This document shows positions 4,081 through 63,659 of a DNA stretch of 64,000 nucleotides, piece by piece. A program made the position numbers and the translations under genes. The notes below the pieces were generated by a model. The model made no database searches. It had not been told where the DNA came from and worked only from the letters and a program-made list of their open reading frames with translations. The DNA comes from Okamejei kenojei. Taxonomy: Eukaryota. The number at the start of each line of letters is the position of its first letter. Position 1 is the first letter of the stretch. The DNA lies in assembly GCA_035221665.1 (NCBI GenBank), contig CM069141.1, positions 16,120,001-16,184,000 on the forward strand, in the 5' to 3' direction.

Positions 4081-4203
4081 GATAGACACAAAATGCCGGA
4101 CTAACTAGCGGGTTACGCAACATCGCTGGAGAAAAAGAAAAGGTGACGTTTCGGGTCAAGACCTTTTCAGTCTTAAGAAGAATCTTGACACAAAACGTCA
4201 CCT
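4081..4203. mobile_element. Penelope-derived inverted (head-to-head) hammerhead pair, decayed
   Basis: AGGTGACGTTTCGGGTCAAGACC...TCTTGACACAAAACGTCACCT inverted repeat. Confidence 0.75.
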
Positions 4204-4265
4204 GCAGGTATGCATCTAATTCTCCTTCAACTGTTGCTCCAGTTCATATAGAGGTAGGGATGCTT

Positions 4266-5686: not shown

Positions 5687-6517
5687 GAATGGTTAACCTG
5701 CGATTTTTATGGAGGATTATTTTAATGATAGCTAAACTATGGGTTGCCCATTTTTTTAAATTTCCCTGGCTAGGCAGTGAATTTTATCCCATCATCGATT
5801 CTGTGGGTCAGGCAGACGGTGACGAAAGGAAGAGGGCAATGCAGGTGTACTTGTACACCTGAACATTTACAGTGGCTTCAAATCCGAAATTCTGCTTCCA
5901 ATGAAGAGACTTTAATGGATTTCTATTCCTGAAACAATGATTAAACAATGCATTGAAGAGAAACACTTTTCGAAAAGGTAAAAGGGACAGAGGCCCTGAA
6001 GTCTTTGACTAGATAATTACGGAGGGGGATGATTGCTGACAGAACCAGTATGTGTTTTACGGAATAGCAACTCTCCAGGAGAAATGTATTATAAACGGAG
6101 ATATCAAATTTGAACCATTTGGCAGCATGTAAAACTGCTGAGTGAAATCCTGCTAAAGCTATTTTGTGCTGTTCACCACATTTTCCAGGATATTAGTTGC
6201 AAGCATAATCTTGCTCTATGGAATAAAGGTTTGCAAGGAATGTTCTCAGTAATATTTATCCTAAACACACACACAGTCAGAATGCAGTGTTGTCTTTGCA
6301 GCACCAAGACATACTATATTCCTGATTTACATTAATGTTAATTACATTACATTAGTGTTCTGCATCTGATTTTCTCACTGTTTTCTATGATGAAAAAAAT
6401 GATGTGCTGTTCACAATTGCACTTTCAAACTCATTTTGACTAGGTGCGCAAAAGGCAACACTGCACGGGAATAGTTCCCTCGGCCCACAATGTCCGTGCC
6501 AGACATAATGGCAAGAT

Positions 6518-6655
6518 ATGTAGGAGGGGACTGCAGATGCTGGTTTATAACGAAGATAGACACAAAATGGTGGAGCAACTCAGCAGCTCAGGCAGCAACT
6601 TTGCAGAAAAGGAATAGGTGGTGTTTCGGGTCAAGACCCTTTTGAGTCTGAAGGA
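6518..6655 (-). mobile_element. Penelope-like 3' end, long-tail type, decayed hammerhead
   Basis: TGTAGGAGGGGACTGCAGATGCTGG...TGTTTCGGGTCAAGACCC. Confidence 0.75.
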
Positions 6656-7604: not shown

Positions 7605-7708
7605 CTTCTTCAGACTGGTGAAGGGTCTCGACCCGAAACGTCAACAATTCCTTCTCTCCAGAGATGCTGCCTGTCCCGCTGAGTTACCCCAGCATTTTGT
7701 GTCTTTAT
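7605..7708 (+). mobile_element. Penelope-like 3' end with mutated hammerhead core
   Basis: CTGGTGAAGGGTCTCGACCCGAAACGTC...CAGCATTTTGTGTC. Confidence 0.8.
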
Positions 7709-15850: not shown

Positions 15851-15910
15851 TGATTTGCACGCACGGGCCCCAGCTACGTTTGCCTCTTTGTCGGGTACGT
15901 CGAACAATCC

Positions 15911-17016
15911 TTGTTCTCGGCGTACCAGGGCCCCATCCCCGACCTCTACCTCCGTTACATCGACGACTGCTTTGGTGTCACCTCCTGCACCCACACACAA
16001 CTGACTGACTTCATCCGTTTCACCACCAACTTCCATCCGGCACTCAAATACACCTGGACCATTTCCGACACTTCCCTACCATTCCTAGACCTCACCATCT
16101 CCATTGCAGGTGATACGCTCCTGACCGACATCCACTACAAACCAACTGACTCCCACAGCTACCAGGACTACTCTTCCTCCCACCCTGCTTCCTGTAAGGA
16201 CTCCATCCCCTATTCCCAATTCCTCCATCTACGCCGCATCTGCTCCCAGGATGAGGTGTTCCCCACCAGGTCATCACAAATGTCCTCATTCTTCAGAGAA
16301 CGGGGATTCCCCTCTCCCACTATAGATGAGGCTCGCACCAGGGTCTCCTCCATACCCCGCAACACTGCCCTCTCTCCCCATTCCCCCACTCGCAACAAAG
16401 GCAGAGTCCCCCTGGTCCTCACCTTTCACCCCACCAGCCGGCAAATACAACACATAGTCCTCCGCCAGTTTCACCACCTCCAACGTGACCCCTCCACTCG
16501 CCACATCTTCCCATCTCCCCCCCTGTCTGCCTTCCGCAAAGACCGCTCCCTCCGCAACTCCCTTGTCAATTCTTCCCTTCCCTCCCGCTCTACCCCTTCC
16601 CCGGGCACTTTCCCTTGCAACCGCAAGAAATGCTACACTTGTCCCTTCACCTCCCCTCTCCACTCCTTTCAAGGACCCAAGCAGTCCTGCCAGGTCCGAC
16701 AGAGGTTCACCTGCACCTCCTCCAACCTAATCTACTGCATCCGCTGCTCCAGATGCCAGATGATCTATATCGGTGAGACCAAGCGGAGGCTTGGCGATCA
16801 TTTTGCCGAACACCTCCGCTCGGTCCGCATTAACCAACTCGACCTCCCGGTGGCTCAGCACCAACTCCCCCTCCCATTCCGTATCCGACCTCTCGGTCCT
16901 GGGCCTCCTCCACGGCCAGAGTGAGCAACACCGCAAGTTGGAGGAACAACACCTCATATTCCGCATGGGGAGTCTGCATCCTCTGGGCTTGAACATTGAA
17001 TTTTCTCAATTCTGTT
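15911..17016 (+). pseudogene. Penelope-like RT/GIY-YIG ORF remnant
   Basis: 337-aa ORF; frameshift near 16862 (compare 53520); continues in another frame as ...EEQHLIFRMGSLHPLGLNIEFSQFC*. Confidence 0.92.
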
Positions 17017-17251
17017 AACCCTTGCTGTCTCCTCCCCTTCCCACCTCTCCCTCAGCCCTCAGGGCCTGGCATTCCCTCTCTCTCTATCTCTCTCCCCCAC
17101 CCTAGTCGCACTAGCTTCTCATTTTCACACTACAAACAGCTTACAATGGCTTGTTCCCTTTATCATCGATACTTTTTTGCATATCTTTCACTCATTGTTC
17201 TTTATCTCTCCACATCACCGTCTATATCTCTCGTTTCCCTGATCCCTGACC

Positions 17252-17285
17252 AGTCTGAAGAAGGGTCTCGACCCGAAACGTCGCC
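17252..17285 (+). ncRNA. Minimal type-I hammerhead ribozyme motif
   Basis: CTGAAGA A GGGTC TC GACCC GAAAC GTC; predicted cleavage after 17282; weak stem I. Confidence 0.75.
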
Positions 17286-18287
17286 TATCTCTTTCGCTCC
17301 TTAGATGCTGCTGCACCCGCTGAGTTTCTCCAGCCTTTTGTGTACCCTGACTTGCTGATTTGCTGACGGTTTTCATCTTGAATGCTTCAAACAATAGCTT
17401 AAACATTTAATATATGCTGTGACATTTCCACAAAGGTGCTTCACTGTTTTTTTTCCAAGGCGAGAACTGAAGGTTGGGCTTTCTTCAAGTAAGACTAATT
17501 CTTATGAATCACAAGCATCAATCTGTATGAAGGAATATAACCAGAGCTGAATATTATTAACCATCCCTGGCCACATAATTAAAGTCTAACAGGTGCAGCC
17601 AGCAGATATGGCTACCTTGAACAGATCCTTGAAAGCTTCATTGTCCTGGATTTTTATGAGCATTTTCCATTATTATTTGCAATTGGGTTCACTTAAAACC
17701 TTGCATTTCTCTTCTTTGAAGAGACTTATGACTAGCTAACTCACACATTAACATGTCTGCTGTGGCTGCCAAAGGTTTTATTTTTCCTCCTCTGCAATTT
17801 AACCTGGAGGCTGGTGTAGAAATGCCCTTCCCCACCAACAAATGTAAATTTAAATGTAATGTGTTGTGCATTATTTTCTGCATTGCACGAAAACGCTGCA
17901 TTTTTCTCCCTGTTGTGCCATTAAACAAAATCCAAATAAGAAACACCGCCAAATGACTTTTAGACAAAGTAACCACATTTCTCAGTGCTCTTAATTACTT
18001 CCTGGCCATAATATTGCAACAGTGTTTAGATCATTAACATGAAATGATTGCACCACATTACCAGTGACATTTCAAGTCCTGTTGCACCTATTCAAACACT
18101 CCATTGAATATCCAGCATTACTCACCCGAGATAATTGAACACTTCATTGCTGCAAAAAGCTTTTTTTTAAATTTCAAGATGAGCTCCAAGTTTTGCGGAG
18201 GAGTCGTGAGCATGTTTTTCATTGCTCACTAAATTCCAAAGAAATGTGCAGATTGGTTTGGGAACAGCCCCATCCAAGTTCCACTGC

Positions 18288-21055: not shown

Positions 21056-21091
21056 AGGTCTGAAGAAGGGTCTCGACCCGAAACGTCGCCT
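21056..21091 (+). ncRNA. Minimal type-I hammerhead motif
   Basis: AGGT CTGAAGA A GGGTCTCGACCC GAAACGTC GCCT; 4-bp stem I including one G-U pair. Confidence 0.75.
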
Positions 21092-21152
21092 ATCTCCTTT
21101 GCTCCTTAAATGCTGCTGCACCCGCTAAGATTCTCCAGCCTTTTGTGTACCG
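21063..21152 (+). mobile_element. ~90-bp Penelope-like insertion (ribozyme plus tail only)
   Basis: Near-identical to 17258-17346; TSD-like 14-mers at 21049-21062 and 21153-21166 (12/14). Confidence 0.85.
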
Positions 21153-26433: not shown

Positions 26434-26778
26434 TCCCTGGTGGAATTAAACTGGGTGAAAAAAAAGGTCTTGCTTTCCACTATGCCCTTAAATTCACTTG
26501 GAGTATTGCTGACACCACCCTCCCCTTTCTCGATCCCTCTGCCTCAAATGCCTGTTGTCCACAGCAAACCCACTGACTTCCGAAGCCACGTTGTCTACAC
26601 CTCCTCGCACCCTGCTTCATGCCAGGACACCATTTCTTACTCTCAGTTTCCCATTCTCCCTCGCTGCGTTGCAGGGTCGGCCTGGCCAAGCAAAGTTGTC
26701 AGTGCCCTCCATCGCTGCTCCGCCGCTCCGTGCTGCTGCAGGCTGCATCCGATCCACAAGCTAGTCTCTTGGAGCGGC

Positions 26779-27130
26779 GGTACACAAAAGGCTGGAGAAA
26801 CTCAGCGGGTGCAGCAGCATCTAAGGAGCGAAGGAGATAGGCGACGTTTCGGGTCGAGACCCTTCTTCAGACTGGTCAGGGATCAGGGAAACGAGAGATA
26901 TAGACGGTGATGTGGAGAGATAAAGAACAATGAATGAAAGATATGCAAAAAAGTATCAATGATAAAGGGAACAAGCCATTGTAAGCTGTTTGTAGTGTGA
27001 AAATGAGAAGCTAGTGCGAAGGGGGGGGGGGAGAGAGAGAGAGAGAGAGGGAATGCCGGGGCCCGAGGGCTGAGGGAGAGGTGGGAAGGGGAGGAGACAG
27101 CAAGGGTTAACAAAATTGAGAAAATTCAAT
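26779..27130 (-). mobile_element. Penelope-like 3' UTR insertion, same young subfamily as 15859-17346
   Basis: Highly similar to the reverse complement of 16997-17346; TSD-like CTCTTGGAG(C/A)GGC at 26766-26778 and 27221-27233. Confidence 0.92.
26840..26873 (-). ncRNA. Minimal type-I hammerhead motif
   Basis: Identical to 17252-17285; predicted cleavage at 26843. Confidence 0.75.
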
Positions 27131-27304
27131 GGGTCGATGTGCCCGGAATGAGGTGTCGGTGGAGAGGCCCTGCAGCAGCCTGGGGCTCAATTAGATCAGG
27201 TGCCGCTCCAATCCTGCTTCCTCTTGGAGAGGCACCTGATCTAATTGTGCCCCAGGCTGCTGCAGGGCCTCTCCACCGACACCTCATTCCGGGCACGTCA
27301 ACCC
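27131..27304. repeat. 81-bp-arm inverted repeat with 12-nt loop
   Basis: 27131-27211 vs 27224-27304, 77/81 match. Confidence 0.95.
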
Positions 27305-27862: not shown

Positions 27863-28023
27863 TGATAGACACAAAGCGCTGGAGTAGCTCAGCGGGACAG
27901 GCAGCATCACTGGAGAGATTAGGAATGGGTGACATTTTGGGTCAAGATCCTTCTTCAGAGTCTGTTACTCCAGCATTTTGTGTCAATCTTCGGTGTAAAC
28001 CAGCATCTGCAGTTCCTTGCGAC
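27863..28023. mobile_element. Penelope-derived inverted mini-element with internal deletion
   Basis: Minus arm with decayed hammerhead plus plus-strand long tail; flanks ACATCTGAACTTG / ACACCTGAACGTG. Confidence 0.75.
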
Positions 28024-28185: not shown

Positions 28186-28278
28186 GTCTGAAGAAGGATC
28201 TCGACCCGAAAGGTCACCTATCCATGTTCTCCACAGATGCTGCCTGACCTGTTGAGTTACTCCAGCACTTTGTGTCCT
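28186..28278 (+). mobile_element. Penelope-like 3' end with mutated hammerhead
   Basis: CTGAAGAAGGATCTCGACCCGAAAGGTCACC. Confidence 0.8.
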
Positions 28279-28352
28279 TTCCTTGGGGAAGGAACTGGCT
28301 AATGCAAGCAGAACCCAAATATCTGGTCCTAAATATCTGAAACAGGCGTCGA

Positions 28353-33587: not shown

Positions 33588-33685
33588 AGATAGACACAAA
33601 AAGCTGGAGTAACTCAGCGGGACAGGCAGCATCTCTGGATAGAAGGAATAGGTGATGTTTTGGGTCGAGACTCTTTTACAGACTG
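33588..33685 (-). mobile_element. Decayed Penelope-like 3' end
   Basis: GATAGACACAAAAAGCTGGAGTAACTCAGCGGG...GGGTCGAGAC. Confidence 0.8.
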
Positions 33686-33844: not shown

Positions 33845-35465
33845 TCACAACTTTGACTGATTTTTTTGAGGAGGTGTTTTCATGAGGGATGTGATATTAA
33901 ATGCTGGTATTGGGCTTGATGAGGTCTTTGACAAGCTCCTGCATGTTAGGTTGAGAGCCAATGGTGTACAGAGCAGACTGGCAAATTGGATGCAGAAGTT
34001 GATGGAGAGGAGTTTATTTTCTGATGAGAAATCCATAACCAATAGTGTACCGTAAGGATTGGTGCTGGCTGGGACCCCAGATCTTTACATGAATGACTCG
34101 GATATGTATGGAGAAGGAGTGATAAGTAAGAATACGGTTAATACGAACATTGGTAGCATCACAGACACTGAGGAAGGTTATCTAAGTGCCAGAGCTACTA
34201 CACTCCAAACTTTCCGAGTTGACTGTGCCTGAACCCATCTGTCGGTGGACCACCAGCTTCCTGACAGACAGGAAGCTGCACGTGAGGCTGGGAAAGCACA
34301 TTTCGGATCCGCAAACACTCAGCATAGGAGCACTGCAAGGCTGCATACTCTCCCCTACTCTCTCTATACCAACGACTGCACCTGTCAAGCTTCGCAAGTT
34401 TGCGGACGACACAACCCTGATTAGACTGATCCAGGATGGGGAGGAATCTGCCTACAGACAGGAAGTGTCACAGCTGGCGTCCTGGTGCCGTAGCAACAAC
34501 CTAGAGCTCAATGCTCTTAAGACAGTGGAATTAATTGTAGACTTTAGGAGAGCTCCCCCTCCCCTCACCCCACTCACCATCAACAACACCACAGTCTCAT
34601 CTGTGGAGTCTTTTAAGTTCCTGGGAACCATCATCTCCAAGGACTTTAAGTGGGGGGCTACCATCGACTCCACAGTCAAAAAGGCACAACAGAGGATGTA
34701 CTTCCTATGGCAGCTGAGGAAGCACAATCTGCCACAGGCAATGATGGTCCAATTCTACACGGCCATCGTAGAGTCTGTTCTCTCCTTCTCCATCATGGTC
34801 TGGTTTGGCTCAACCACCAAGCACGACACCTGGAGGCTGCAGCGAATCGTCCGATCAGCAGAGAAGGTTATTGGCTGCAACCTTCCCTCCATTGATGAAC
34901 TGTACACTGCAAGGGCCAGGAAGCGAATGTGTAAGACCATCTCTGACCCCTCTCACCCTGGCCACAAACTCTTTGAATCACTTCCCTCTGGAAGGCGACT
35001 CCGGACTGTCAAAGCTGCCACAGCCAGACATAAAAACATTTTTTATCCACGAGTAGTTGCTCTACTCAACAGCCAAAAATCTGCAGCCTCCCTTTGATCT
35101 GGTATTTTGTTGGTTCACATGCTTGAACAATGGTGTTTTATCATTAATGTTTTATTATTATTAATGTTTAGTGTTTTCTGAGTCATCCATAACTGTCACT
35201 GTATGCCACTTGTGGGCGGAGCACCAAGGCAAATTCCTTGTATGTGAATACTTGGCCAATAAACTTACTTACTTACTTAAAACTACAGCATGATACAGAG
35301 TAGCTGGAAAGTTATGTAGAATAATGTCAAATGGAATTCAATCTTGGCGAATGCGAGGTGATGCATGTTGGGAGGGCAAGCGAGGATATTACATTTGCAG
35401 CAAATGGTTGGCCTTAGGCAGTGTTGATGAACATAGGTACAAAGTGTTAGAGTATGTTGAAGGCA
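33845..35465 (+). mobile_element. Very old CR1 RT fragment split by Rex1 (parts 33845-34185 and 35280-35465)
   Basis: GAAGGTTATCTAA|AACTACAGCATGATA is continuous across the insertion. Confidence 0.7.
34186..35279 (+). mobile_element. 5'-truncated Rex1/Babar-like LINE (family A)
   Basis: 303-aa ORF SIGALQGCILSP, KFADDTTLI, NNLELNALKTVELIVDFR, KFLGTII; AATAAA(CTTA)n tail. Confidence 0.9.
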
Positions 35466-35939: not shown

Positions 35940-36470
35940 GTGGATTGGTAGACAAGCTCAGTCCGCCTGTACCTACCTGATCTCCCGGTTGCCAAACACT
36001 CTAATTCCCCTTCCCATTCCCACACTGACCGTTCTGTCCTAGGCCTCCTCCATTGTCAGAGTGAGGCCAAACGCAAATTGGAGGAACAGCATCTCACATT
36101 TCGCTGGAGCAGCCCAGTGGTATGAATATTGGTTTCTCTAACTTCATATAACCCCGCAATTCCTCTCTCTCCATCCCTTCCCCATCCAAGTCATACCAGC
36201 TTCAAAGTCGTCTTGTTGAGTCTCTGTCTAAACTCGTTCTCAGCTAACAAACAGCTAACAAATGGCCTGTTTCCTTTATCATGGTTACTTTTTTGCATAT
36301 CTTACATACATTTGTTACATATCCCTCTACATCACTGTCTTACATCTCTCATTTCCCTTTCCCCTGACTCTCAGTCTCATGAAAGGTTTCAACCCAAAAC
36401 ATCACCTATTCCTTTTCTCCAGGGATGTTGTCCGACCCGCAGAGTTACCTCGGCTTTTTGTGTCTATCTT
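35940..36470 (+). mobile_element. Old Penelope-like 3' fragment (GIY-YIG end, UTR, decayed hammerhead)
   Basis: CGCAAATTGGAGGAACAGCATCTC (RKLEEQHL). Confidence 0.85.
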
Positions 36471-40677: not shown

Positions 40678-41746
40678 GTATGTTGTGAGTATGTGTGTAT
40701 ATATATATATGCACTGAGCTTATCTTTTCTCTCTCATTTGTCATATCGTACTATGTTTATGTATTCTGTTGTGCTGCAGCAAGTAAGAATTTCATTGTTC
40801 TACATGGGACATATGAGAATAAAACACTCTTGACTCTCTAGACTCTCGCTTCACCATACTCTCCTCTGTACACTTGCTATCTTCCCTCTCTACTCCTGGT
40901 CCTGATGCAGGGCTTTGACACAAAACGCCAACCATTCCTTTCCACCCACTGAGTCCCTCCAACAGATTGTTTGTTGCTTTTAAACCAACATTAGTTGTAA
41001 AAAAATCATGTACTGATACCTTTGATTTCAACCAAAAAGTTAGCATTTTATACATGATTTTAAAAAATACAGAAATTAAGATGGTATGACTGAATCATTT
41101 GTGATGTGTGATTATCATGCAAATAACTTTTAGTGTAGTTATTTTCTGTAAATCTATATCATGATTGAATAAGATGATTTCTATGAAGAGCTTCACACTG
41201 GACACATTGGCAAACGCAATAGCAGTGCTTTTTTTTGTGACAGTATGAGCCAGTACGTCTGCAGAATAAAACACACAATAGTATAATAGTTTATTGCAAT
41301 CTGAGCAACATGTTAACCAAACAGGATTGTATCTTTCGTGTAGCAAAATGTTCACCAGGAATTTGTTGCAACTAATTCCTAATCAACTCAACAAAGGAAT
41401 AACTTCACAGGAAGTGCATCTTTACATTGTACTTCCAATGACACTATTTCAGTCGAGTGTGAAAAACAAATTCCTGAATGCAGCTTCTCGAGAAAGCGAG
41501 AGAGGCTGTTAAATCTAACAGCATTATTCTTTGTGAATTGTCCACCTACATTGTTATTATGGCTCTTCAGTGCAATTTCCAGAAATGTTTCAACAGTCAA
41601 TTATTTTTGGGCCCATTTATTGTGTTCAGTTCAATGGCCAAGCCTTTCACTACATTTCTAAGCATGAATCTTCACTTCCAGACATATCTATACATCCACT
41701 GAATCATTCAGGAGGATTTGTTATGTATTATATTAACAATGATTGC

Positions 41747-42112: not shown

Positions 42113-43418
42113 ATAATGAATTAATTAATTAATACGTTTATTGGCCAAGTATTCACATACAAGGAATTTGCCTTGGTGCTCCACCCGCAAGTGACAACAT
42201 GACATACAGGGACAGTTAAGTATGATACATAAAACATTAAACATTAATAATAAAACATTATTGACTAAACATATGAATTAAATAAAATACCAGAGCAAAA
42301 GTAGGTTACGGATTTTTGGTTATTGAGTAGAGCTACAACTCGTGGGAAAAAAGCAGTTTTTATGTTTGGCTGTGGCAGCTTTGACAGTGTGGAGTCGACT
42401 TCCCGAGGGAAGTGATTCAAAGAGTTTTGTGGCCTGGGTGAGAGGGGCCACTTGCTTCCTGGCCCTTACAGTGTACAGTTCGTCAATGGAGGGAAGGTTG
42501 CAGCCAATAACCTTCTTAGCTGATCGGACGATTCGCTGCAGCCTCCGGATGTCGTGCTTGGTGGCTGAGCCAAACCAGACCATGATGGAGAAGGTGAGGC
42601 AGACTCTACGAAAGCTGTATAGAATTGGGCCATCATTGCCTGTGGCAGATTGTGCTTCCTCAGCTGCCGCAGGAAGTACATCCTCTGTTGTGCCTTTTTG
42701 ACTGTGGAGTCAATGGTAGCCCCCCACTTAAGGTCCTTGGAGATGATGGTTCCACAGATGTGACTGTGGTGTTGTTGATGGTGAGTGGGGTGAGGGGAGG
42801 GGGAGCTCTCCTAAAGTCTACAATCAGTTCCACTGTCTTAAGAGCATTGAGCTCTAGGTTGTTGCGATGGCACCAGGATGCCCCAGCTGTGTCACTTCCT
42901 GTCTGTAAGCAGATTCCCCCCCATCCTGGATCAGTCCAATCAGGGTTGTGCCATTCACAAACTTGAGAAGCTTGACAGAGGTGTCTGTGGAGGTGCAGTC
43001 ATTGGTGTAGAGGAGAGGAGAGAGTACGCAGCCCTGCGGTGCTCCTATGCTGAGGGTGTGCGGGTCCAAGATATGCTTCCCCAGCTCACATGCTGCTTCC
43101 TGTCTATCAGGAAGCTGGTGATTCACCGACAGAAGGGTTCAGGCACAGTCAACTCGGAAAGTTTGGAGTGTAGTAGCTCTGGCACAATGGTGTTGAATGC
43201 AGAGCTAAAATCAACAAACAGGATCCTCGCATAGGTCCCCTGACGGTCTAGGTGCTGGAGGATGAAGTGCAGGCCCACGTTCATTGCGTCATCCACAGAT
43301 CTACTGGCCTGATATGCAAACTGCAGAGGGTCCAGCAGGGGGTTTGTGATATTTTTCAGCTTGGCCAGCACAAGCCTTTCAAGGGTCTTCATGACTACAG
43401 AGGTCAGTGCAACAGGCC
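42113..43418 (-). mobile_element. 5'-truncated Rex1/Babar-like LINE (family A)
   Basis: MKTLERLVL..LDPLQFAY..ILFVDFSSAFNTIVP; GAPQGCVLSPLL; homologous to 34186-35279. Confidence 0.9.
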
Positions 43419-43765
43419 ATGCTGACTATCCCTAATCCCTCCTTGCCTTGCCAAATGCATGTAAATCCTATCTTTCAGATTACCCTCCTATAACTTGCCC
43501 ACCACCCTGGCTTTCTCTGGTTTTTCCTTATCCTTGCAGTGTTTCATAGATGGAGACCTTACATTAGCGACTATTAACCTCGGCTATCGATGATACAAAC
43601 ATTCCTGCCAGTGACCATGCACTTTCTTCCCTGGTTTCCCACAATGTTCTAAAAACATTTGGATTCAGGCCCCAGGGATTTGTCTGCCTTGATGCATTTT
43701 AAGACCTCCAGCACCTCCTCTTCAATGATGTGGACACTCTGCACGATATCATTGTTACCTTCATT
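43419..43765 (-). mobile_element. Old CR1 fragment
   Basis: Minus strand encodes ..KADKSLGPE.. (cf. KSPGPD). Confidence 0.65.
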
Positions 43766-44042
43766 CATTCTTCAAGGCATACTTGCAGTATTCAGAAATC
43801 GTATAACTTCTAGGTGCAGCAGTATTCCAGTTCAGAAGTGAGGTGCAGTCTGTAAGTTTATGTTAAGCATTTATTTAAATCATGTAAGAGGTCAATGTTA
43901 CAGTTGTCAAAGTTGAAGTGGAGTGGAGAATGATATTAATGGGCATCAACCAGTGAATTGTTTGAGAAGCTTTGAACACATATTACATTCAGCATAAATC
44001 AAGTATCAGTGACTTTATAAAGAAGCTGTACTACACCCAGGA

Positions 44043-44600
44043 TCAATTTTACTTCGGAGTCACGTGAGTGACTTCGTGAAGACCCCGCGAGCACGTATGC
44101 GCGACCTTGGAATTGGCAAAATTGGCTGGCTCAGTCACCAAGCTCCTATTTCAAAAATCGGGGTTTATTATCCATCCAGACAAATCCAAGTTAAATGCCT
44201 TCCGGTGACTATGGATTTGGGATTCACGATTGACTCTGTTCATATGTCTGTCACCTTGCCAAAAAACAAAGCAACAGACTTGATAGAGGCATATAACAGC
44301 CTTGTTTGCGTCAGTAAACCATCTATTCGGCAAATAGCCAGGGTAATTGGGAAGCTCGTGGCTGCCTTTTTCCCAGCCACAATTTGGACCCTTACATTAC
44401 TAAAATCTACAAAGGGCCAAAACTACAGTACTCAAAACACCATGCTGGCCATTTTGACAGACCAGCCAAAGCAAATTGGAAATTACGATGGTGGATTAGC
44501 AATGTTCGACATTGCTCTAAATCCCATCACAGTCACAAACCCTTCGGTTGTGTTACAAACCAATACCACCTCCAGTTGTGGTGGTAGATGGAATACACAC
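44043..44600 (+). mobile_element. DIRS-like tyrosine-recombinase retrotransposon remnant (RT 3' part and RNase H start)
   Basis: GFIIHPDKS; LGFTIDSVHMSVTLPKNK..RQIARVIGKLVAAF; FGPLHY; LRWWISN; VVLQTN. Confidence 0.75.
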
Positions 44601-44605
44601 GACCT

Positions 44606-44915
44606 TACTTCAGGGTATCAATCATCAAAAGATGTTGGGAGCATCCACGGACTTGTGAGTTGGGTGAGAATGAGACTCAACAAGACAAATTTGAAGCTGA
44701 TATGACTTGGGTGGGGGAGGAATGGAGAGAGGGGGAATGCAGGGGTTACTTGAAGTTAGAGGAATCAATATTAATACCACTGGGTTGCAAGCTGCCCAAG
44801 CGAAATATGAGATGTTGTTCCTCCAATTTGCGTTTGACTTTCCTCTGACAATAGAGGAGGCCTCGGACAGAAAGGTCAACGTTGGAACGGGAATTAAAGT
44901 GTTTGGAAACCGGGA
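44606..44915 (-). mobile_element. Old Penelope-like GIY-YIG end fragment
   Basis: Reverse-complement homologue of 35990-36240. Confidence 0.8.
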
Positions 44916-45102
44916 GCTTGTTCCTTTGACCACAATAACGTTTAATAACTTTTTATTATGTATTTTTTTAAGTACTTCAAAAAGGACATTTATATCTCAG
45001 TATAAGCTGGAAAGATTCTGTGTATTTTTTTAAGTAATTAACATTTAATATCAGATTACGTGCAGATTAACCCTGGTTAAAAATACTTTCAGTTGTTGAG
45101 TG

Positions 45103-45317
45103 TAGACAAAAATGCTGGAGAAACTCAGCGGGTGAGGCAGTATCTATGGAGCGAAGGAATGGGTGACGTTTCGGGTGGAAACCCCTGTCCGAAGAAGGGT
45201 CTTGACCCGAAACATTACCTATTCCTTCGCTCCAAAGATACTGCCTCACCCGCTGAGTTTCTCCAGCATTTTAGTCCATCTTCGATTTTTCAAACATCGG
45301 CAGTTCTTTCTTAAACA
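45103..45317. mobile_element. 215-bp palindromic Penelope-derived mini-element with two inverted hammerhead remnants
   Basis: Perfect 15-bp TSD TTCAGTTGTTGAGTG at 45088-45102 and 45318-45332. Confidence 0.92.
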
Positions 45318-45424
45318 TTCAGTTGTTGAGTGCTATTTTTGTACTCATCAATAATTATTCTCAAAGTACTACTCTATTGCACAGATTCAGTTCAAATGTT
45401 ATGTATAGTGATGTGCAAATAAGA

Positions 45425-45672: not shown

Positions 45673-46815
45673 CATTAATATGAATTGATCTCATCTATAT
45701 CAAAAATAAAAACAGAAAATCCTGGAAGAACTCGGCCAGTCGAGCAGTATCTGTGGAAAGCGAAACTTAAGCTTAGGGAAAGAGACAAGCTGGTATCAGA
45801 AACATTTGGCAATAATTTTAATGCCAATGTATAACAAAACTATTATATCACTTGCAGCAAACAATAAGATATGATCCAGCTCTCAATGCGGGAATTGTGT
45901 TACATCTTTTATGTTTTTACCACGTAAAATCAGAAAGTAGGAGGATTTCAAGACACTTGCTTGGAGGTTTGCAAAGACAAAATAATGAGTTACTGGAATA
46001 ATTAACAAGCTTCTTTCAGGATGGTCATTCCACAAACTTTAGTCCTTCCTGGGAATATTTTGTTTTAGCCTTATTATCAAATCTGTATGTTAATAAATCT
46101 GTTTTTTTCTGGCATGATGCATTCTACAGACTTGCATATTTTGATCAGCCTATTAGATATGTGGGCCAATTTGGTGCTAATGTTTTCAGTGGAGGATTTT
46201 AAATAACTTACTCAAACATTTAGCCAAATGCTTTGCATATGATTAAGCTGATTTTAGTTAATTGGAAATCGGCGACCATGTATTAAAGATGAGGCCACTT
46301 TTACGATTAACTCTAATTTTTGGTCAACTCATTTACAGAATACGGAGTTCGTTAGTGATTAGTGTTACAGTAACTAATTTATTCAGCGCATCGCCATCCA
46401 TGCAGAAGATTTGTCAAAGGCAGATCTGAAGTTCAGCAAATATTTAACTTGGCGGTTTTGTGTCCTCATTAATTCAGGTACTGAAGTATGAATAAAGAGC
46501 ATGCTTTTAGCAGCTTTTGGGCAGTTAATCTAACAAGTTTACTTCACAGTGTAATAATCAGATTCAAGGTACTATGAATTTAATTTGAGTGGTTGGGTCA
46601 TTACTTCTGGAGAATTCGAATAAATTGTCGCTTTCCAGATATAGTTTCTGCGAATTCCAAATGTCTCGAACATTTAAGCCAATTGCTTGGCATGTGATTA
46701 AGCTGATTTTACTTAATTGGAAATCAGCGACCGTGCATTAATGTTGAGGCCACTTTTACTATTAACTCTCAATTCTGGTGAATTTATTTATGGAATACGA
46801 AGTCACGGTTAATTC

Positions 46816-48996
46816 AGAGACTAGGGTCATGAACATAAAGAAAGTAGACTTTGATGGTATGAGATGGGAATTGGCTAGGATAGACTTGCAAATGGTACTT
46901 AAAGGGTTGACGGTGGAGATGCAATGGCAAAGATTTAAGGATTGCATGGATGAAGTACAAAAATTGTTCATCCCTGTCTGGCGAAAAAATATAACGGGGA
47001 AAGCGGCTCAACTGTGGCTAACGAGGGAAATTAAGGATAGTGTTAAATCCAAGGAAAAGATATATAAATTGGCCAGAGGAAGCAGCAAACCGGAGGACTG
47101 GGAGAAATATAGAACTCAACAGAGGACAAAGGGGTTAATTAAGAGGGGGAAATAGAGCACAAAAGAAAGCTTGCAGGGAATATAAAAATTGTAAAAGCAT
47201 TTTTAGGTATGTAAAGGGGAAAGGATTAGTGAAGACAAATGTAGGTCCCTTACAGTCAGCAACAGGTGAATTTATAATGGGAAACAAGGAAATGGCAGAC
47301 CAGTTAAACAAGTACTTTGGATCTGTTTTCACTAAGGAAGACACAAACAATCTCACAGAAATACTAGGTGCTGGGACCCCAGTTATTTACTTTATATATA
47401 TAAATTATTTAAACAAGAGAATTAAATGTGACATCTCCAAGTTTGCAGATGACACAAAGCTGGGTGGCAGTGTGAGCTGCAATGAGGATGCTATGAGGCT
47501 GCAGGGTGACTTGGATATGCTGGGTGAGTGGGCAGATGCATGGCAGATGCAGTAAAATGTGGATAAATGTGAGGTTATCCACTTTGGTGGCAAGAACAGG
47601 AAGGCAGATTATTATCTGAATGGTGTCAGATTAGGAAAAGGGGAGGTGCAACAAGACCTGGGTATGCTTGTACATCAGTTACTGAAAGTAAGCATGCAGG
47701 TGCAGCAGGCAGTGAAGAAAGCTAATGGCATGTTGGTCTTCATTGCTAGAGGATTTGAGTTTAGGAACAAGGAGGTCCTACTGCAGTTGTACAGGGCCCT
47801 GGTGAAACCACACCTGGAGTATTATGTGAAAGCCTTTGGTGTGCTGGCCTTTATAAATCAGAGCATTGAATATAGGAATAGGGAAGTAATGTTTAAAATT
47901 GTACAAGGCATTGGTAAGACCAATTCTGGAGTATGGTGTACAATTTTGGTCGCCTAGTTATAGGAAGGATATCAGCAAAATAGAGAGAGTACAGAGGAGA
48001 TTTACTAGAATGTTGCCAGGGTTCCAGCAACTATGTTACAGAGAAAGGTTGAACAAGTTAGGTCTTTATTCTTTGGAGCGCAGAAGGTTAAAGGGGGACT
48101 TGATTGAGGTCTTTAAAATGATGAAAGGGGTAGACAGAGTTGACGTGGATACGTTTTTCCCATTGAGGGTAGGGAAGATTCAAACAAGAGGGCATGACAT
48201 GAGAATTAAGGGACAGAAGTTTCGGGGTAACGTGAGGGGGAACTTCTTTACTCAGAGGGTGGTGGCTGTGTGGAATGAGCTTCCAGCAGAAGTGGTGGAG
48301 GCAGGATCGATTTTAACATTTAAGACTAAAGTGATAGGTATATGGACGTGAAGGGAATGGAGGGGTATGGTCTGAGTGCAGGTAGATGGGACTAGGGGAA
48401 AGCAAATGGTCGGCACGGACTGGAAGGGCCGAGAGGGCCTGTTTCCGTGCTGTAATTGTTATATGGTTATATGGTTATATGGTTATGTGCAGTTTTGGTC
48501 TCCTAATTTGAGAGTGTGGGAGTGTAGCGTAGGTTCACCAGGATAATTCCCGGGATGGTGGGACTGACGTATGAGGAAAGAATGGGTCGACTAGGCTTGT
48601 ATTCACTGGAATTTAGAAGGATGAGAGGGAATTTTATAGAAACATATAAAATTCTTAGGACAGGCTAGATGCAGGATAAATGTTCTCCGTGTTGGGGGAG
48701 TCCAGAACCAGGGGTCACAGTTTAAGAATAAGGGGTAGGCCATTTACGAGTGAGATGAGGAAAAACTTTTTCACCCAGAGAGTTGTGAATCTGTGGAATT
48801 CTCTGGCATAGAAAACAGTGGAGGCCAATTCACTGGATGTTTTCAAGAGAGAGTTATATTTAACTCTTAGGCTAATCGAAACAAGGGATACGTGGAAAAC
48901 GCAGGAATGGGATACTGATTTTGGATGATCAGCCATGATCATATTGAATAGCAGTGCAAATGGTCTACTCCTGCACCTATTTTCTATGTTTCTATA
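46816..48996 (+). mobile_element. CR1 LINE with large internal deletion, hosting a nested CR1
   Basis: KVDFDGMRWELARID; LNKYFGSVFTKED joined directly to KFADDTKLGG; TTTCTATG tail. Confidence 0.92.
47829..48482 (+). mobile_element. Young 5'-truncated CR1 with (ATATGGTT)n tail
   Basis: TTATGTG at 47822-47828 and 48483-48489; nearly identical to the reverse complement of 54379-55025. Confidence 0.95.
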
Positions 48997-50117: not shown

Positions 50118-50528
50118 TGTAGAAAGGAGCTGCACATGCACTGAATGTAGACACAAAACGCTGGTGTAACTCAGCGGGTCAGGCAGCATTTCTAGAGAAA
50201 ATTAACAAGTGATATTTCGGGTCGAGAACCTTCTTCAGACTGAGAGTCGGGAGAAGAAAATTAGTGTTTATAAAAGGTACATAGCACAAATGAATGAAAG
50301 ATAAGGAAAAAGCAACAATGATCAAGGAAAGGTGAAGCCCACAATGGCCCATTGTGGGCTGTAAGGAAAGGTGGTAACGGGTTATACAAACAGTGAAACC
50401 CAACAGTGAAACTAGTACGACGACAAGGGTGGTGGAGGGACAGAGACAGCGGGAATGCAAAGGTTACTTGATATTAGAGAAATTCATATTCATACCGTTG
50501 GGTTGTAAGCTGCCCCAGCAAAATATAT
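50118..50528 (-). mobile_element. Old Penelope-like 3' fragment with decayed hammerhead
   Basis: GATATTTCGGGTCGAGAACCTTCTTCAGAC; ORF-end homology at 50460-50528. Confidence 0.82.
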
Positions 50529-53194: not shown

Positions 53195-53883
53195 TTTTCC
53201 GCAGAGACCAGCTCCCTCCATAACTCCCTGGTCAATTCGTCCCTTCCCACACACACCACCCCTCCCCATGCACTTTCCCTTGCAACCAGAGGAAATGCTA
53301 CACTTGTCGCTTTACCTCCCCCTTTGACTCCAAGGACCTAAGCAGTCTTTCCAGATGAGGCAGAGGTTCACCTGCACCTCTTCCAACCTCATCTATTGCA
53401 TCCGCTGCTCTAGGTGTCAACTGCTCTACATCAGTGAGACCAAGCGCAGGCTTGGCGATCGCTTCGCCCAACACCTCCGCACCGTTCGCATTAACCAACC
53501 TGATCTCCCGGTGGCTCAGCACTTCAACTCCCCCTCCCATTCCGAGTCCGACCTTTCTGTCCTGGGCCTCCTCCATGACCAGAGTGAGTTCCACCGCAAA
53601 TTGGAGGAGCAGCACCTCATATTTCGCTTGGGCAGTTAACACCCCAGCGGTATGAACATTGACTTCTCCAATTTCAGGAAGTCCTTGTTTTCTCCCTCCT
53701 TCCCCTCCCCTTCCCAGCTCTCCCACAGCCCACTATCTCCGCCTCTTCCTTTCTTCTTCCCCCCCCCCCCCCCCCCACCCCCACATCGGTCTGAAGAAGG
53801 GTCTGGACCCGAAACGTCACCTATTCCTTCGCTCCTTAGATGCTGCCTCACCCGTTGAGTTTCTCCAACATTTTTGTCTACCT
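53195..53883 (+). mobile_element. 5'-truncated Penelope-like element (GIY-YIG, 3' UTR, hammerhead)
   Basis: NLIYCIRCSRCQLLYISETKRRLGDRFAQH; 10-bp TSD TAGATAGATT at 53185-53194 and 53884-53893. Confidence 0.95.
53788..53821 (+). ncRNA. Minimal type-I hammerhead motif
   Basis: GGT CTGAAGA A GGGTC TG GACCC GAAACGTC ACC; stem I GGT:ACC. Confidence 0.78.
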
Positions 53884-54019: not shown

Positions 54020-54298
54020 ATCTCTGGAGAAAACAAATAGGTGACGTTTCGGGTCAGGACACTTCTCCAGCCTGAAGAAGCGTAGCAACCTGAAACAACA
54101 CCTATATTTTTTTTATCAGTGATGCTGCCTAACCCGCTGAGATACACCAGCATTTTGTGTATATCTTCAGTACAATATTAAGCAGATGCTGGTATACACC
54201 AAAGATAGACACAAAGTGCTGGAGTAACTCAACGGGTCAGGCAGCATCTCTGGAGAAAAAGGATGGGTGATGTTTCGGGTCGGGACCCTTCTTCAGAC
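54020..54298. mobile_element. Cluster of three decayed Penelope 3'-end/hammerhead units (minus, plus, minus)
   Basis: Cores near 54040-54070, 54072-54100 and 54267-54296. Confidence 0.78.
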
Positions 54299-54378: not shown

Positions 54379-56790
54379 AACCATATATAACCATATAACA
54401 ATTACAGCACGGAAACAGGCCCTCTCGGCCCTTCCAGTCCGTGCCGACCATTTGTTTTCTCCTAGTCCCATCTACCTGCACTCAGACCATACCCCTCCAT
54501 TCCCTTCACGTCCATATACCTATCCACTTTACTCTTAAATGTTAAAATCGATCCTGCCTCCACCACTTCTGCTGGAAGCTCATTCCACACAGCCACCACC
54601 CTCTGAGTAAAGAAGTTCCCCCTCACGTTACCCCGAAACGTCTGTCCCTTAATTATCATGTCATGCCCTCTTGTTTGAATCTTCCCTACCCTCAATGGGA
54701 AAAACGTATCCACGTCAACTCTGTCTATCCCTTTCATCATTTTAAAGACCTCAATCAAGTCCCCCCTTAATCTTCTGCGCTCCAAAGAATAAAGACCTAA
54801 CTTGTTCAACCTTTCTCTGTAACATAGTTGCTGGAACCCTGGCAACATTCTAGTAAATCTCCTCTGTACTCTCTCTATTTTGTTGACATCCTTCCTATAA
54901 TTAGGGGACCAAAATTGTACACCATACTCCAGAATTGGTCTTACCAATGCCTTGTACAATTTTAACATTACTTCCCTACTCCTATATTCAATGCTCTGAT
55001 TTATAAAGGCCAGCACACCAAAGGCTTTCTTTACCACCCTATCTACATGCGATTCCACCTTCAGGGAACTATGCACAGTTATTCCTAGATCCCTCTGTTC
55101 CACAGCATTCCTCAATTCCCTACCATTTACCATGTACTTCCTATTTTGATTTGTCCTGCCAAGATGTAGCACTTCACACTTAACAGCATTAAACTCCATC
55201 TGCCATCTTTCAGCCCACTTTTCCAAATGGCCCAAATCTCTCTGTAGACTTTGAAAATCTACTTCATTATCCACACACCACCTATCATAGTATCATCTGC
55301 ATACTTACTTATCCAATTTTCCACCCCATCATCCAGATCATTGATGTAAATGACAAACAACAGTGGACCCAACACAGATCCCTGAGGCACCCCACTGGTC
55401 ACCGGCTTCCAGCCTGACAAACAGCCATCCACCATTACTCTCTGACATCTCCCATTCAGCCACTGTTGAATCCATCTTGCTACTCCGCCATTAACACCCA
55501 AAGATTGAACCTTCTTAACCAACCTTCCATGGGGAACCTTGTCAAAGGCCTTACTGAAATCCATATAGACAACATCCACTGCTTTACCCTCATCAATTTC
55601 CCTAGTTACCGCTTCAAAAAATTCAAGAAGGTTTGTCAAACATGACCTTCCAGCACAAATCCATGTTGACTGTTCCTGATCAGACCCTGTTTATCCAGAT
55701 GCTTATATATATTACCTCTAAGTATCCTTTCCATTAATTTGCCCACCACTGACGTCAAACTAATAGGTCTATAATTGCTAGGTTTATTCTTTGAACCCTT
55801 TTTAAACAATGGAACAACATGCGCAGTACGCCAATCCTCCGGCACTATTCCCGTTTCTAATGACATTTGAAATATTTCTGTCATAGCTCCTACTATTTCT
55901 ACACTAACTTCACCCAATGTCCTAGGGAATATCCTGTCAGGACCTGGAGACTTATCCACTTTTATATTTTTCAAAAGTGTCAGTACTTCCTCCTCTTTGA
56001 ATCTCATAGTTTCCATAGCTACTCTACTTTTTCCCTTTAACTCACAGAGTTCAATATCCTTCTCCTTGGTGAATACCGAAGAAAATAAATTGTTCAATAT
56101 CTCCCCCATCTCTTTTGGCTCTGCAGATAGCTGTCCATTCTGGTTCTCTAATGGTCCAATTTTATCCCTCGTTATCCTTTTGCTATTAATATAACTGTAG
56201 AAACCCTTTGGGTTTACTTTCACCTTTCTTGCCAAAGCAACCTCATATCTTCTTTTAGCCTTCCTAATTTATTTCTTAAGATTCTTTTTACATTCTTTAT
56301 ACTCCTCTAGCACCTCATTTACTCCATGCCTCCTATAATTATTGTAGATATCTCTCTTTTTTCGAAACAAGTGTCCAATTTCCCTTGAAAACCATGGCTC
56401 TTTCCAATTTTTACTATTTCCTTTCAACCTAACAGGGACATAAAGATTATGTACTCTTACAATTTCCCCTTTAAATGTCCTCCATTTCTCTTCTACATCC
56501 TTCCCATGAAACAAAGTGTCCCAATTCACTCCTTTAAAATCCTTACGCATTCCCTCAAAGTTAGCCTTTCTCCAATCAAAAATCTCCACCCTAGGTCCAG
56601 TTCTGACTCTCTCCATAATTATATTGAAACTAATGGTATTTTGATCACTGGTCCCGAAGTGCTCACCAATGCATACCTCCGTCACCTGACCTGCCTCATT
56701 TCCTAACAGGAGGTCCAGCACTGCCCCTTCTCTGGTCGATACCTCTATGTACTGCTGCAAAAAAACTATCCTGCACACATTTTACAAACT
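54379..56790 (-). mobile_element. Young 2.4-kb 5'-truncated CR1 LINE (endonuclease end, RT, tail)
   Basis: Four consecutive ORF pieces: [39 protein letters not shown]; (ATATGGTT)n tail. Confidence 0.97.
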
Positions 56791-57699: not shown

Positions 57700-59132
57700 A
57701 AGGTGCTTTGAGAGGTTGCTTATAGTGCATATCAACTCCTACCTCAACAAGAACCTCGACCCACTACAGTTTGCCTACTGTCACCACAGGTCACTGGCAT
57801 CTCACTGGCACTTCACTCCACTCTGGGCCACTTGGACAATAAAAACACTTATATCAGGCTGTTGTTTATAGACTACAGCTCAGCATTCAATGCCTTCATT
57901 CCCTCCAAACTGGTTACCAAGCTCACCAAGGAGCTGAGTCGCTGTGCATCCCTCTGCAATTGGATCCTCGACTTCCTCATCCACAGACACAGTCTGCTCG
58001 AATTGGCAGAAATACTTCTTCCTCATTAGCAATCAGTACGGGAGCACCTCAAGGCCGCGTGCTCAGCCCCCTGCTCTATTCACTCTATACTCATGACTGT
58101 GTAGCCGGACACAGTGCAAACTCCATCTTCAAGTTCGCCGACAACAACACCATTGTTGGATGACTTTCAGATGGTGATGAGTCGGAGAAGAGAAGTGAGA
58201 TCGATCGATTGACCAAATGATGCCAGCACAACAACCTGGCTCTCAATATCAGTAAAACCAATGAACTGATTGTGGGCTTTGGAAGAGGAAGGATGAGGAC
58301 CCACGATCCTGTTTATATCAACGGGACAACGGTGGAGAGGGTCAAAAAACGTCAAATTCCTGGGCGTGCATATTTCCAAAGATCTTTCTTGGACACAGCA
58401 CACTGATGCAATTATAAATAAAACGCATCAACATCTCTACTTCCTGAGAAGATTACAAAGATTCAGTATGTCAGAGAGGATTCTCATGAACTTCTACAGG
58501 TCTACAGTAGACAGCACATTGACTGGTTGCATCACGGCATGGTTCGGCAACTTGAACGCCCAGGAGCGAAAAAGACTGCAAACATTTGTGAACACTGCCC
58601 GGTCCATCACCGGCTCTGACCTCCCCACCGTCGAAGGGATTTATCGATCGTTGCCTCAAAAAGGCAGCCAACATAATCAGAGACCCACACCATCCTGGCT
58701 ACACATTCATTTCTCCCCTGCCATCGGGAAGAAGTTACAGGAGCCTGAAAACTGTAACATCCAAGTTCAGGAACAGCTTCTTTGCTTCTTCCATACAGCC
58801 ATCAGGCTATTAGAACAATCTCAAATAAGCGCTGAACTACAATAGACTATTATGATTATTATATATTACGNNNNNNNNNNNNNNNNNNNNNNNNNNNNNN
58901 NNNNNNNNNNNNNNNNNNNNNNNNNNNNNNNNNNNNNNNNNNNNNNNNNNNNNNNNNNNNNNNNNNNNNNNNNNNNNNNNNNNNNNNNNNNNNNNNNNNN
59001 NNNNNNNNNNNNNNNTTCTCATTTATTATATTGTTTACAGTGTACTATATTTACATATTCTGTTGTGCTGAAGCAAATAAGAATTTAATTGTTCTATCTG
59101 GAACATATGATAAAAAAACACGCTTGACTTGA
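57700..59132 (+). mobile_element. Rex1/Babar-like LINE (family B), spanning the assembly gap
   Basis: CFERL..LDPLQFAY; LFIDYSSAFN; GAPQGRVLSPLLYSLYTHDC; homologous to 38108-39060. Confidence 0.9.
58871..59015. other. Assembly gap (run of N)
   Basis: Ns within the Rex1 3' UTR, where the 38108 copy has TA/TG microsatellite. Confidence 0.99.
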
Positions 59133-62515: not shown

Positions 62516-62528
62516 CTCACAAATCAAT

Positions 62529-62719
62529 GATAGGCACAAAATGTTCGCGTAATTCAGCGGGTCAGGCAGCATCTTTGGAAAAAATGGATGTGACGTTTCG
62601 GGTCTGGACCCTTCTTCAGACCCGGCCCGATCCATTTTCTCCAGAGATGCTGCTTGACCCGCCTAGTTACTCCAGCGTTTTGTGTCTATCTTTGGAATCT
62701 GCAGTTCCTTTTTATTACA
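62529..62719. mobile_element. Palindromic Penelope-derived mini-element; minus-arm hammerhead core intact (62592-62619)
   Basis: Minus strand CTGAAGAAGGGTCCAGACCCGAAACGTC; plus arm with long tail. Confidence 0.82.
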
Positions 62720-63659
62720 TTGGGTACATCAATGTTTTTCTATTGTGGCTTCTACTCTGGTGATCATGGTGATCTTGCTTTCCATCAGAGAATGAGAATG
62801 TTCTGCTAACTTACTGCCCGACTTGTTCAGAGGTTTAAAACTCCCACCCTTCAAATGTAATTGCATCATTGGATTCCTGTCAAAAATGTACAGTCTTGTA
62901 TAGTTTATATTTGTCTTATTCACAATGAAAGACTTTGTTAACAAACTGAAGCAAGCATTTTCTGCACAGGAGAGCAATGTAAAATATTACATTATCAATC
63001 AATATTATTAAATCAGCATGTCTCAATCAACAAACTCAGATGAACTATTTCCTACGCTGCTGCTAATCGTCACATATCTCAGGATATATGATCACAATTT
63101 GATTTTAAACCACAAAAGTATGTTCAAGTCACAGATAAACTGGTGGTTTGGGGAAATTGACAGCTTTGAAAATTTATCATTCTCAATTGATGCTACATTT
63201 AATATTCTAGCTTCCTTTATTGCTTATCCTCACCGCAGTATGAAGTTTATCTTGGTTGCTATGCAATGTTAACATTTTGCTGAACATGAAAGTTTTGGAT
63301 AAATTGCAATCCACGTGCCTGTTGGGATTACTCAGTGGAAATATGGTTGCAAAAGGGCTGCATTTGATGTCATCCTTCATAAAAACAACCTAAATAAGAA
63401 TGATATGTTGAATATTTGCATCTCTCCTCTGGAGTTAAGATCATACAAAAGAATTATATAAAATGGTTGATACTTAGCACAGTATCTGTCAAATGATTGT
63501 GCACAGAAGATTAATGTCCTCTGTAAAATTATTTTGTCTAGAAATTGGATATTTGCTTTTTTTAATAGGTGATAATCACCCCAAATACACTTTTACTTGA
63601 AATAAGTGGGCAGTGATGCTGCTGGTGGAGATGACTGCCTATTAGGACTGAGATCTATG

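Follow-up and report, generated by a model that had tools for sequence, protein, structure and literature searches.

Most short Penelope-like inserts in an Okamejei kenojei window share a fixed 5' edge beside a predicted minimal hammerhead motif

The part played by the hammerhead in the Penelope cycle has been called unclear (PMC8557442), and a locus in which a hammerhead motif recurs many times among the remains of such an element raises the question of where these copies begin and end and which RNA they record. We addressed this question in a window of 64,000 nucleotides of Okamejei kenojei (the whole stretch analyzed, contig CM069141.1, positions 16,120,001 to 16,184,000), in which the original prediction, made from the letters alone, had recognized a Penelope-like family carrying a minimal hammerhead ribozyme.

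The motif itself is well supported. The exact 28-nt pattern was found without mismatch at all five cores that had been cited as intact (17255+, 21060+, 26870-, 53791+, and 62619-), and, with up to 3 mismatches, 12 matches occur in the window against none in 100 of 100 shuffles. The core CUGANGA ... GAAA ... NUH of the Penelope-like class is present and agrees with the published consensus (Cervera and de la Pena 2014, PMC4209133). The extra base that had been noticed between A9 and G10.1 is real, being A at 17262 and invariant in all 20 rows of the alignment described below; the G10.1-C11.1 pair is G-C in 19 of these rows and G-U in one, and helix III (positions 15.2 to 16.2) is palindromic and loopless as first described, with ACGU in 19 of the 20. 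The other stem had been drawn from GGGTC/GACCC as 5 bp with a 2-nt loop, but predicted folds make its closing unlikely and are better described by a helix II of 4 bp with a C-N-N-G loop. The variation reported for the two apical bases was found again (TC, TC, TC, TG, and CA in the five intact copies), whereas the CC and TT given with them belong to damaged copies only, where TT is consistent with CpG decay. Selection on a 5-bp stem, as read from these two bases, was considered and rejected, CpG decay accounting for part of the pattern. Helix I, which the earlier description lacked, has merely 2 to 3 bp in the window family, 2 bp being the commonest form and 3 bp occurring at 53791.

Within the window, the core shows slightly higher conservation than the tail (0.92 vs 0.85, p=0.06, among 15 selected copies). 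The more telling comparison, across species, used the 80 metagenome loci that ranked highest among 417 confirmed relatives, at 37 to 57% protein identity. A minimal-hammerhead descriptor gave 24 hits on these 80 loci, against none in nine shuffles and 1 in another; 14 of the 24 are on the coding strand, 255 to 298 nt downstream of the query end. We aligned 17 of the 24 hits with three of the five intact window copies, leaving out near duplicates and two odd hits. In the resulting 20 rows, 93.5% of 200 cells are paired compared with 19 to 38% in slid controls, a share that is partly built in because the rows were selected by a descriptor that requires pairing and whose chance level is 0 to 1 hits; 51 cells are changed on both sides, and none of 500 shuffles came as high. 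The expectation that the core would be better kept than its flanks is borne out at this distance, the core being invariant across distant relatives while helices I and II covary. A model built from the aligned rows gave 53 matches in the 80 related loci and 18 in the window, and the published Acropora digitifera Neptune row is the motif of three of the relatives (L017, L043, and L076) from helix I strand to helix I strand (PMC4209133). Rfam covariance models detected no hammerhead family in the window at E<=1, the exact motif was not found in viral or metagenome contigs, and no relative turned up in viral contigs. Altogether, on the evidence of sequence and covariation, the motif is a minimal type I hammerhead in the pLTR of a Penelope-like element with RT and GIY-YIG endonuclease, a class that is known.

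The reading frame that precedes the 17255 copy has one frameshift near 16860 and a stop codon at 17016-17018. It carries YIDD, a C-x4-C-x2-C linker, and, at its C-terminus, a GIY-YIG-type endonuclease with a Cys pair between both motifs (LIYC..C..C..IYIGET), and the linker cysteines C255, C260, and C263 are nearly invariant across 29 aligned rows. Among 2542 longer candidates, 151 match the frame fragment at E<=0.001; RVT_1 is present in many of these and PF01541, the GIY-YIG family, in some, and the most identical named protein match is from Chiloscyllium punctatum (64% over 72% of the query); Pfam gave no match on the window's own fragment, nor did the protein profile against solved structures. 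A C-terminal GIY-YIG with a Cys pair and a C-x2-5-C-x2-C linker are marks of Neptune (and Nematis) elements (PMC8557442), and the sharing of the published Acropora Neptune hammerhead by the relatives lends indirect support to this clade. The element is, thus, probably a Neptune-type Penelope-like element, a placement drawn from motifs and the relatives' hammerhead rather than from a tree of named references. Two more pieces of Penelope-like elements stand without a hammerhead piece, namely an endonuclease/UTR piece at 44709-44892(-) and an RT piece at 26484-26694, which is inverted beside the 26870 copy.

A motif-plus-tail profile built on 15 well-aligned window copies found 28 pieces in the window, 15 on the plus and 13 on the minus strand, and no piece in the reversed window that served as control. 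The earlier count of about 20 insertions is correct because several of the 28 pieces are two arms of one insertion. Only five pieces are intact, and the 28 sum to 2293 bp. The location downstream of a GIY-YIG reading frame, given before for the family, holds for the 17255 copy (237 nt past the stop) and fails for most others, since element UTR lies upstream of only 6 of the 28 (17255, 26870, 36376, 50238, 53791, and weakly 57022); most pieces are short pLTR-only inserts (Table 1). At 40902-40975 lies a divergent variant, possibly of another Penelope-like subfamily, whose tail is shorter and whose core opens with a CUGAUG-type sequence.

Table 1. Positions in the window of the predicted hammerhead motif, the element reading frame, and selected copies
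Feature	Position	Strand	Remarks
5'-truncated, probably Neptune-type Penelope-like reading frame, RT C-terminal part to endonuclease	15854..17018	+	relatives, aligned rows
Pyrimidine-rich 3' UTR / upstream pLTR part, terminal CCAG	17019..17252	+	
Predicted minimal type I hammerhead motif	17253..17284	+	pattern match, relatives, published consensus
Helix I 5' strand	17253-17254	+	part of 17253..17284 motif
Hammerhead core	17255-17261	+	
Extra A	17262	+	
Helix II and loop	17263-17274	+	
GAAA	17275-17278	+	
CGUC	17279-17282	+	predicted cut after 17282
Helix I 3' strand	17283-17284	+	
Tail downstream of motif to short 3' end	17283..17346	+	other copies extend ~35 nt to second, long end
94-bp pLTR-only insert, start -2 (GT), intact motif	21058..21151	+	94.7% identity to 17253-17346
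UTR-linked copy, intact motif (core at 26870)	26779..27131	-	96.6% identity to 17255 copy
Copy with endonuclease fragment, shorter C-rich UTR, intact motif at 53791, 3-bp helix I	53197..53882	+	
Short pLTR-only copy, start -2, helices II and III damaged	28186..28279	+	
Short decayed copy, start about -4/-3	33588..33684	-	
Short copy starting at core, few inverted bases before	7613..7708	+	
Short decayed copy, long tail, start at core	6515..6646	-	
Older UTR-linked copy, decayed motif	35956..36469	+	
Older UTR-linked copy, helix II damaged	50146..50330	-	
Head-to-head inverted pair, short tail end left, long right	45103..45317	.	between 15-bp direct repeats
Head-to-head inverted unit, short end left, long right, one arm internally deleted	27864..28020	.	
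Head-to-head inverted unit, intact motif 62619(-) from -3	62528..62720	.	second arm: start near cut site, long tail
Decayed inverted pair, center at helix I edge	4081..4204	.	
Decayed inverted pair centered on 54071	54020..54298	.	
Short minus-strand copy, start -2	54182-54298	-	

The rest of the window holds large pieces of other LINE-type retroelements at 54462-56781(-), 46766-48351, 34186-35097, and 42320-43425, presumably CR1-like and Rex/Babar-like; the piece at 34186-35097 has an RVT_1 match below the cut-off. A 230-codon open frame at 44013-44705 has no Pfam match and gave us the impression of a DIRS-type retroelement fragment. By the 5' end of the copy at 26779-27131 lies a long near-perfect hairpin (27142-27294), on which Rfam microRNA models stay below their gathering scores, and an assembly gap of 145 N covers 58871-59015.

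Most of the short inserts begin at nearly the same base. Among the 22 pieces without linked UTR, a count in which a very divergent UTR could be overlooked at 33681 and 40902, 14 start at -3 to +2 of the first base of the core (C3), three by +5, and five deeper, which compared with even truncation over 100 nt corresponds to a binomial p of about 1e-13, the arms of one insertion being non-independent. Helix I pairing ends at the same 5' edge. The commonest insert is a pLTR piece of 94 to 130 bp with the uncut motif inside, and the 3' side likewise has two fixed ends, ~64 and ~100 nt downstream of GUC. From the short to the long end, the sequence (TTTGTGT ... CAGCA ... CAGTT) is conserved with metagenome relatives of ~45% protein identity, the comparison being of window 6512-6580(-) with the tails of four of them (L007, L026, L043, and L080).

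Beyond the window, the edge was followed in contigs of public runs, from which all counts at the scale of the genome are taken. Loose ends before 17251, 17252, and 17253 number at least 1220, 647, and 635, respectively, in the contigs of run X1, and 222, 96, and 102 in those of run X15. The flanks of the 17252 and 17253 piles are unrelated (agreement 0.31 to 0.33). Summed contig depth rises 3- to 5-fold at the 5' edge, and part of this step reflects subfamily divergence because the 17251 pile is partly another C-rich UTR subfamily. Contigs of both runs also contain several joints that go back from 17282-17289 to 17250-17253, hinting at very short hammerhead repeats, in tandem or as palindromes, at other places in the genome; one of these forms would give a 6-bp helix I, and the joints may be assembly-graph artifacts.

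The 5' edge of the short inserts lies ~30 nt upstream of the predicted cut site, with the whole motif inside, and hence they were not templated by the 3' cleavage product. A start of the inserts at the cut site was considered and rejected, as only 2 of the 28 pieces begin near it (36994 and 62627); among the 19 loose-end rows listed of 1173, none starts there (17283). A parallel exists in PAc, the Poseidon element of Anolis carolinensis (Frangieh et al. 2024), in which the substrate is mainly uncut RNA, RT initiates at either of two sites in the tail, a 5'-truncated template gives a shorter product, and both DNA strands are extended (PMC11167929). A fixed 5' edge, together with RT starting at two tail sites, is most simply explained by run-off of RT at the 5' end of the RNA. 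We propose a model based on the following: (i) by analogy with PAc, RT would initiate at one of two tail sites inside the RNA, (ii) it would run off at the 5' end of uncut RNA starting 2 to 3 nt ahead of the core, which would place the transcript start at -3/-2, (iii) the inverted pairs would be two such cDNAs, each primed from one of the nicked strands, in a head-to-head junction, and (iv) the ribozyme of the window family would cut only with the help of the element's protein. That most copies are dead inserts of 94 to 130 bp, produced as run-off cDNAs of an uncut RNA with its 5' end at helix I, is the reading that we favor, with a confidence slightly above even. The edge sequence TCAGTC presumably fits the metazoan initiator consensus. 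In all four consensus rows of the 17252 and 17253 piles, the base before the edge is G, and in the window a G precedes two of the four lone copies with a GT/GGT start (21058 and 62621, but not 28186 and 54298). The case for this G as a copied cap is weak, and in the 17253 rows it could come from a GGT subfamily or from fold-back instead.

Head-to-head copies bear on the same edge. The units 45103-45317, 27864-28020, and 62528-62720 each combine one short with one long end, and perfect 15-bp direct repeats at 45088-45102 and 45318-45332 flank the first of them. Target duplications are clear in 1 of the 14 cases tested; three other cases score 6 to 7, values that 13 of 300 random pairs reached or exceeded. 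The unit 27864..28020 has a possible decayed 13-bp target duplication, and the insert 21058..21151 a possible but weak one of 9 bp with one mismatch. In relatives, two of eight paired inverted copies start near the edge, one (L046) at -3, which is the edge of its own 3-bp helix I, and one (L012) just inside the core, while the other six start far upstream, from -46 to -589.

Such pairs, and the edge itself, could also result from fold-back or self-priming at the palindrome TCAG-T-CTGA, which spans helix I and the core, whether the nascent cDNA primes itself or an antisense template is used. This palindrome indeed lies at the center of the pairs at 4172 and 54071 and of the few inverted bases found at 7615 and 6646, and head-to-head junction palindromes of rotifer Penelope elements have been read as antisense-template self-priming (PMC3846280). 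Nevertheless, lone copies without an inverted arm (21058, 28186, 54298, and 33684) begin at the same bases, the sequences flanking the 17252/17253 piles are not inverted element sequence, and PAc uses sense RNA in vitro (PMC11167929). We therefore regard fold-back as an unlikely origin of the edge.

A protein could set the edge, either because RT stalls at a protein bound immediately 5' of the hammerhead or because the GIY-YIG endonuclease trims the UTR-hammerhead junction. We consider this rather unlikely. The PAc protein does bind the region, help the ribozyme, and cleave DNA at its own ORF-pLTR junction (PMC11167929), and UTR homology between subfamilies ends at the same point. A structural block by the hammerhead fold, however, should halt RT 3' of helix I and not 5' of it.

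The edge also looks like a 3' splice site, with a pyrimidine tract, CAG, and T at 17254, in which case the upstream exon would be variable or lost. Four of the five UTR-linked copies checked have the tract and CAG followed by T, and in D. virilis Penelope transcription starts 46 nt upstream of a 75-nt intron that ends at helix I (PMC2377424, PMC4209133). However, starts at -3/-2 are upstream of the acceptor, no GT..AG joint occurs among the 15 joints listed of 103, the flanks are unrelated whereas a shared exon would leave a consensus, the 53791 copy has no AG, and no donor-like site was found in the checked UTR stretches of the 26870 and 50238 copies, all of which make splicing a very unlikely source of the edge.

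The run-off model leaves the capacity of the ribozyme to cut as a separate matter. In ViennaRNA predictions, the active form of the 17255 dimer reaches -6.7 vs -19.7 kcal/mol for the best fold, and that of the 53791 dimer -13.1 vs -30.2 kcal/mol, and the pairing probability of helix I is near 0 once the tail is included; ViennaRNA leaves out the tertiary core, so that a low active-fold score means merely that help would be needed. The dimer requirement of minimal hammerheads comes from work on other families, in which dimer cutting in vitro is weak (PMC4209133), and the anole PAc hammerhead cuts only with protein (PMC11167929). G12 is altered in 6 and G16.2 in 7 of the 18 copies aligned without gaps, mostly from G to A at CpG sites, changes that by their pattern are ordinary decay after insertion. 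RNA contigs of run X16 span the motif and reveal no strand, start, or cut, and 3 reads of the raw-read run X21 were placed. As modeled, the window family's ribozyme may not cut at all.

A hammerhead that no longer cuts could be retained at the RNA 5' end as a signal for protein binding or folding, which would be compatible with the run-off model. This is possible but doubtful: helix I has 2 bp in the commonest form vs 3 to 6 bp in most relatives, the predicted folds favor other pairings, and PAc insertion in vitro does not need cleavage (PMC11167929), whereas the catalytic core, the G10.1-C11.1 pair, and the palindrome are kept in young copies, and 2-bp helix I forms are also published for the Culex and D. 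virilis families (PMC4209133).

At the other extreme, the original prediction had extended cutting to the host, proposing that sense copies in a host intron pair and then cut host pre-mRNA. Two intact plus-strand copies with 3.8 kb between them and the weak dimer cutting of minimal hammerheads in vitro (PMC4209133) would permit it. Still, these copies, 3805 bp apart, are the nearest intact pair on one strand, the other 23 of the 28 pieces are damaged, and the G12 and G16.2 changes described above have accumulated. Moreover, with a helix I of 2 to 3 bp the active dimer is not favored in predicted folds, no strand bias exists across the pieces in the window, and the 150 longest of 644 non-repeat reading frames revealed no host exon, only two weak matches below Pfam cut-offs. 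We find this extension extremely unlikely.

Several observations count against the run-off model as well. The D. virilis start is not at the hammerhead because it lies upstream of the intron that ends at helix I, six of the eight inverted pairs of relatives start far upstream, and the active fold is disfavored; likewise, a target duplication is clear in a single case of 14, and the preceding G is found in half of the four lone copies.

A more elaborate form of the run-off model involves a strong-stop cDNA, for which the RNA would start at helix I, RT would start 95 to 130 nt inside it and run off at the capped end, and strand transfer would follow. The stretch from helix I to GUC would then be a terminal repeat, present at both ends of an RNA that is cut solely at its 3' hammerhead, and the two hammerheads could pair via ACGU, bringing the RNA ends together. 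Failed transfers would be fixed as the 94- to 130-bp inserts and the head-to-head pairs. This proposal is speculative and, on the whole, unlikely.

Much of what the window contains has counterparts in known systems. The minimal hammerheads of metazoan Penelope-like elements share the consensus (CUGANGA, the extra base, G10.1-C11.1, GAAA, the loopless palindromic helix III, and NUH), lie in the pLTR, occur mostly as dispersed single motifs from truncated elements, and form close opposite-strand pairs, as in the window, whose helix I is at the short end of their range (PMC4209133). Thousands of dispersed single motifs per genome are known from coelacanth and Xenopus (PMC4209133), so that dispersal as such is not new; the class is known, as the original prediction stated. 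The rows of Table S1 and Fig. S3 of the same study compared here include none from cartilaginous fish, and a fixed 5' edge of the truncated copies is not described in the sections used (PMC4209133). Neptune elements resemble the window family in their C-terminal GIY-YIG, linker, 5' truncation, head-to-head inverted copies, tail of 30 to 40 nt on one end only, and variable target duplication (PMC8557442), whereas the commonest insert of the window is a pLTR piece with a sharply fixed 5' edge. PAc has the same two fixed 3' ends and an uncut hammerhead inside its inserts, but belongs to another clade, and its ORF starts in helix II, where the 17255 copy has no start codon; the sections of its main text used here report no fixed 5' edge (PMC11167929). 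Finally, non-LTR retrozymes are also short, non-coding, and pLTR-related, with type I hammerheads (10.64898/2026.07.22.740005; PMC7229834), yet they form head-to-tail tandem arrays, whereas the window copies are lone or head to head and mostly decayed; the 2026 preprint, which includes one chondrichthyan genome, has tandem arrays as its subject (10.64898/2026.07.22.740005). A retrozyme array reading of the window was rejected, as no head-to-tail array occurs among the 28 pieces. Nothing found in the mostly open-access literature searched described the hammerhead of the window family, nor a 5' edge fixed at helix I. Hence, the hammerhead class and its dispersal were already known, and what is added here is that most short inserts have a fixed start.

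Our analysis indicates that about 3.6% of the window is dead pLTR debris and not working ribozymes. With the uncut motif kept inside the inserts, their fixed edge at helix I records in the genome a discrete end of an RNA or a cDNA, and it argues against the cut 3' product as the template. If the strong-stop proposal were true, the hammerhead would have a specific function in the cycle of these elements, and the formation of the pLTR would be explained.
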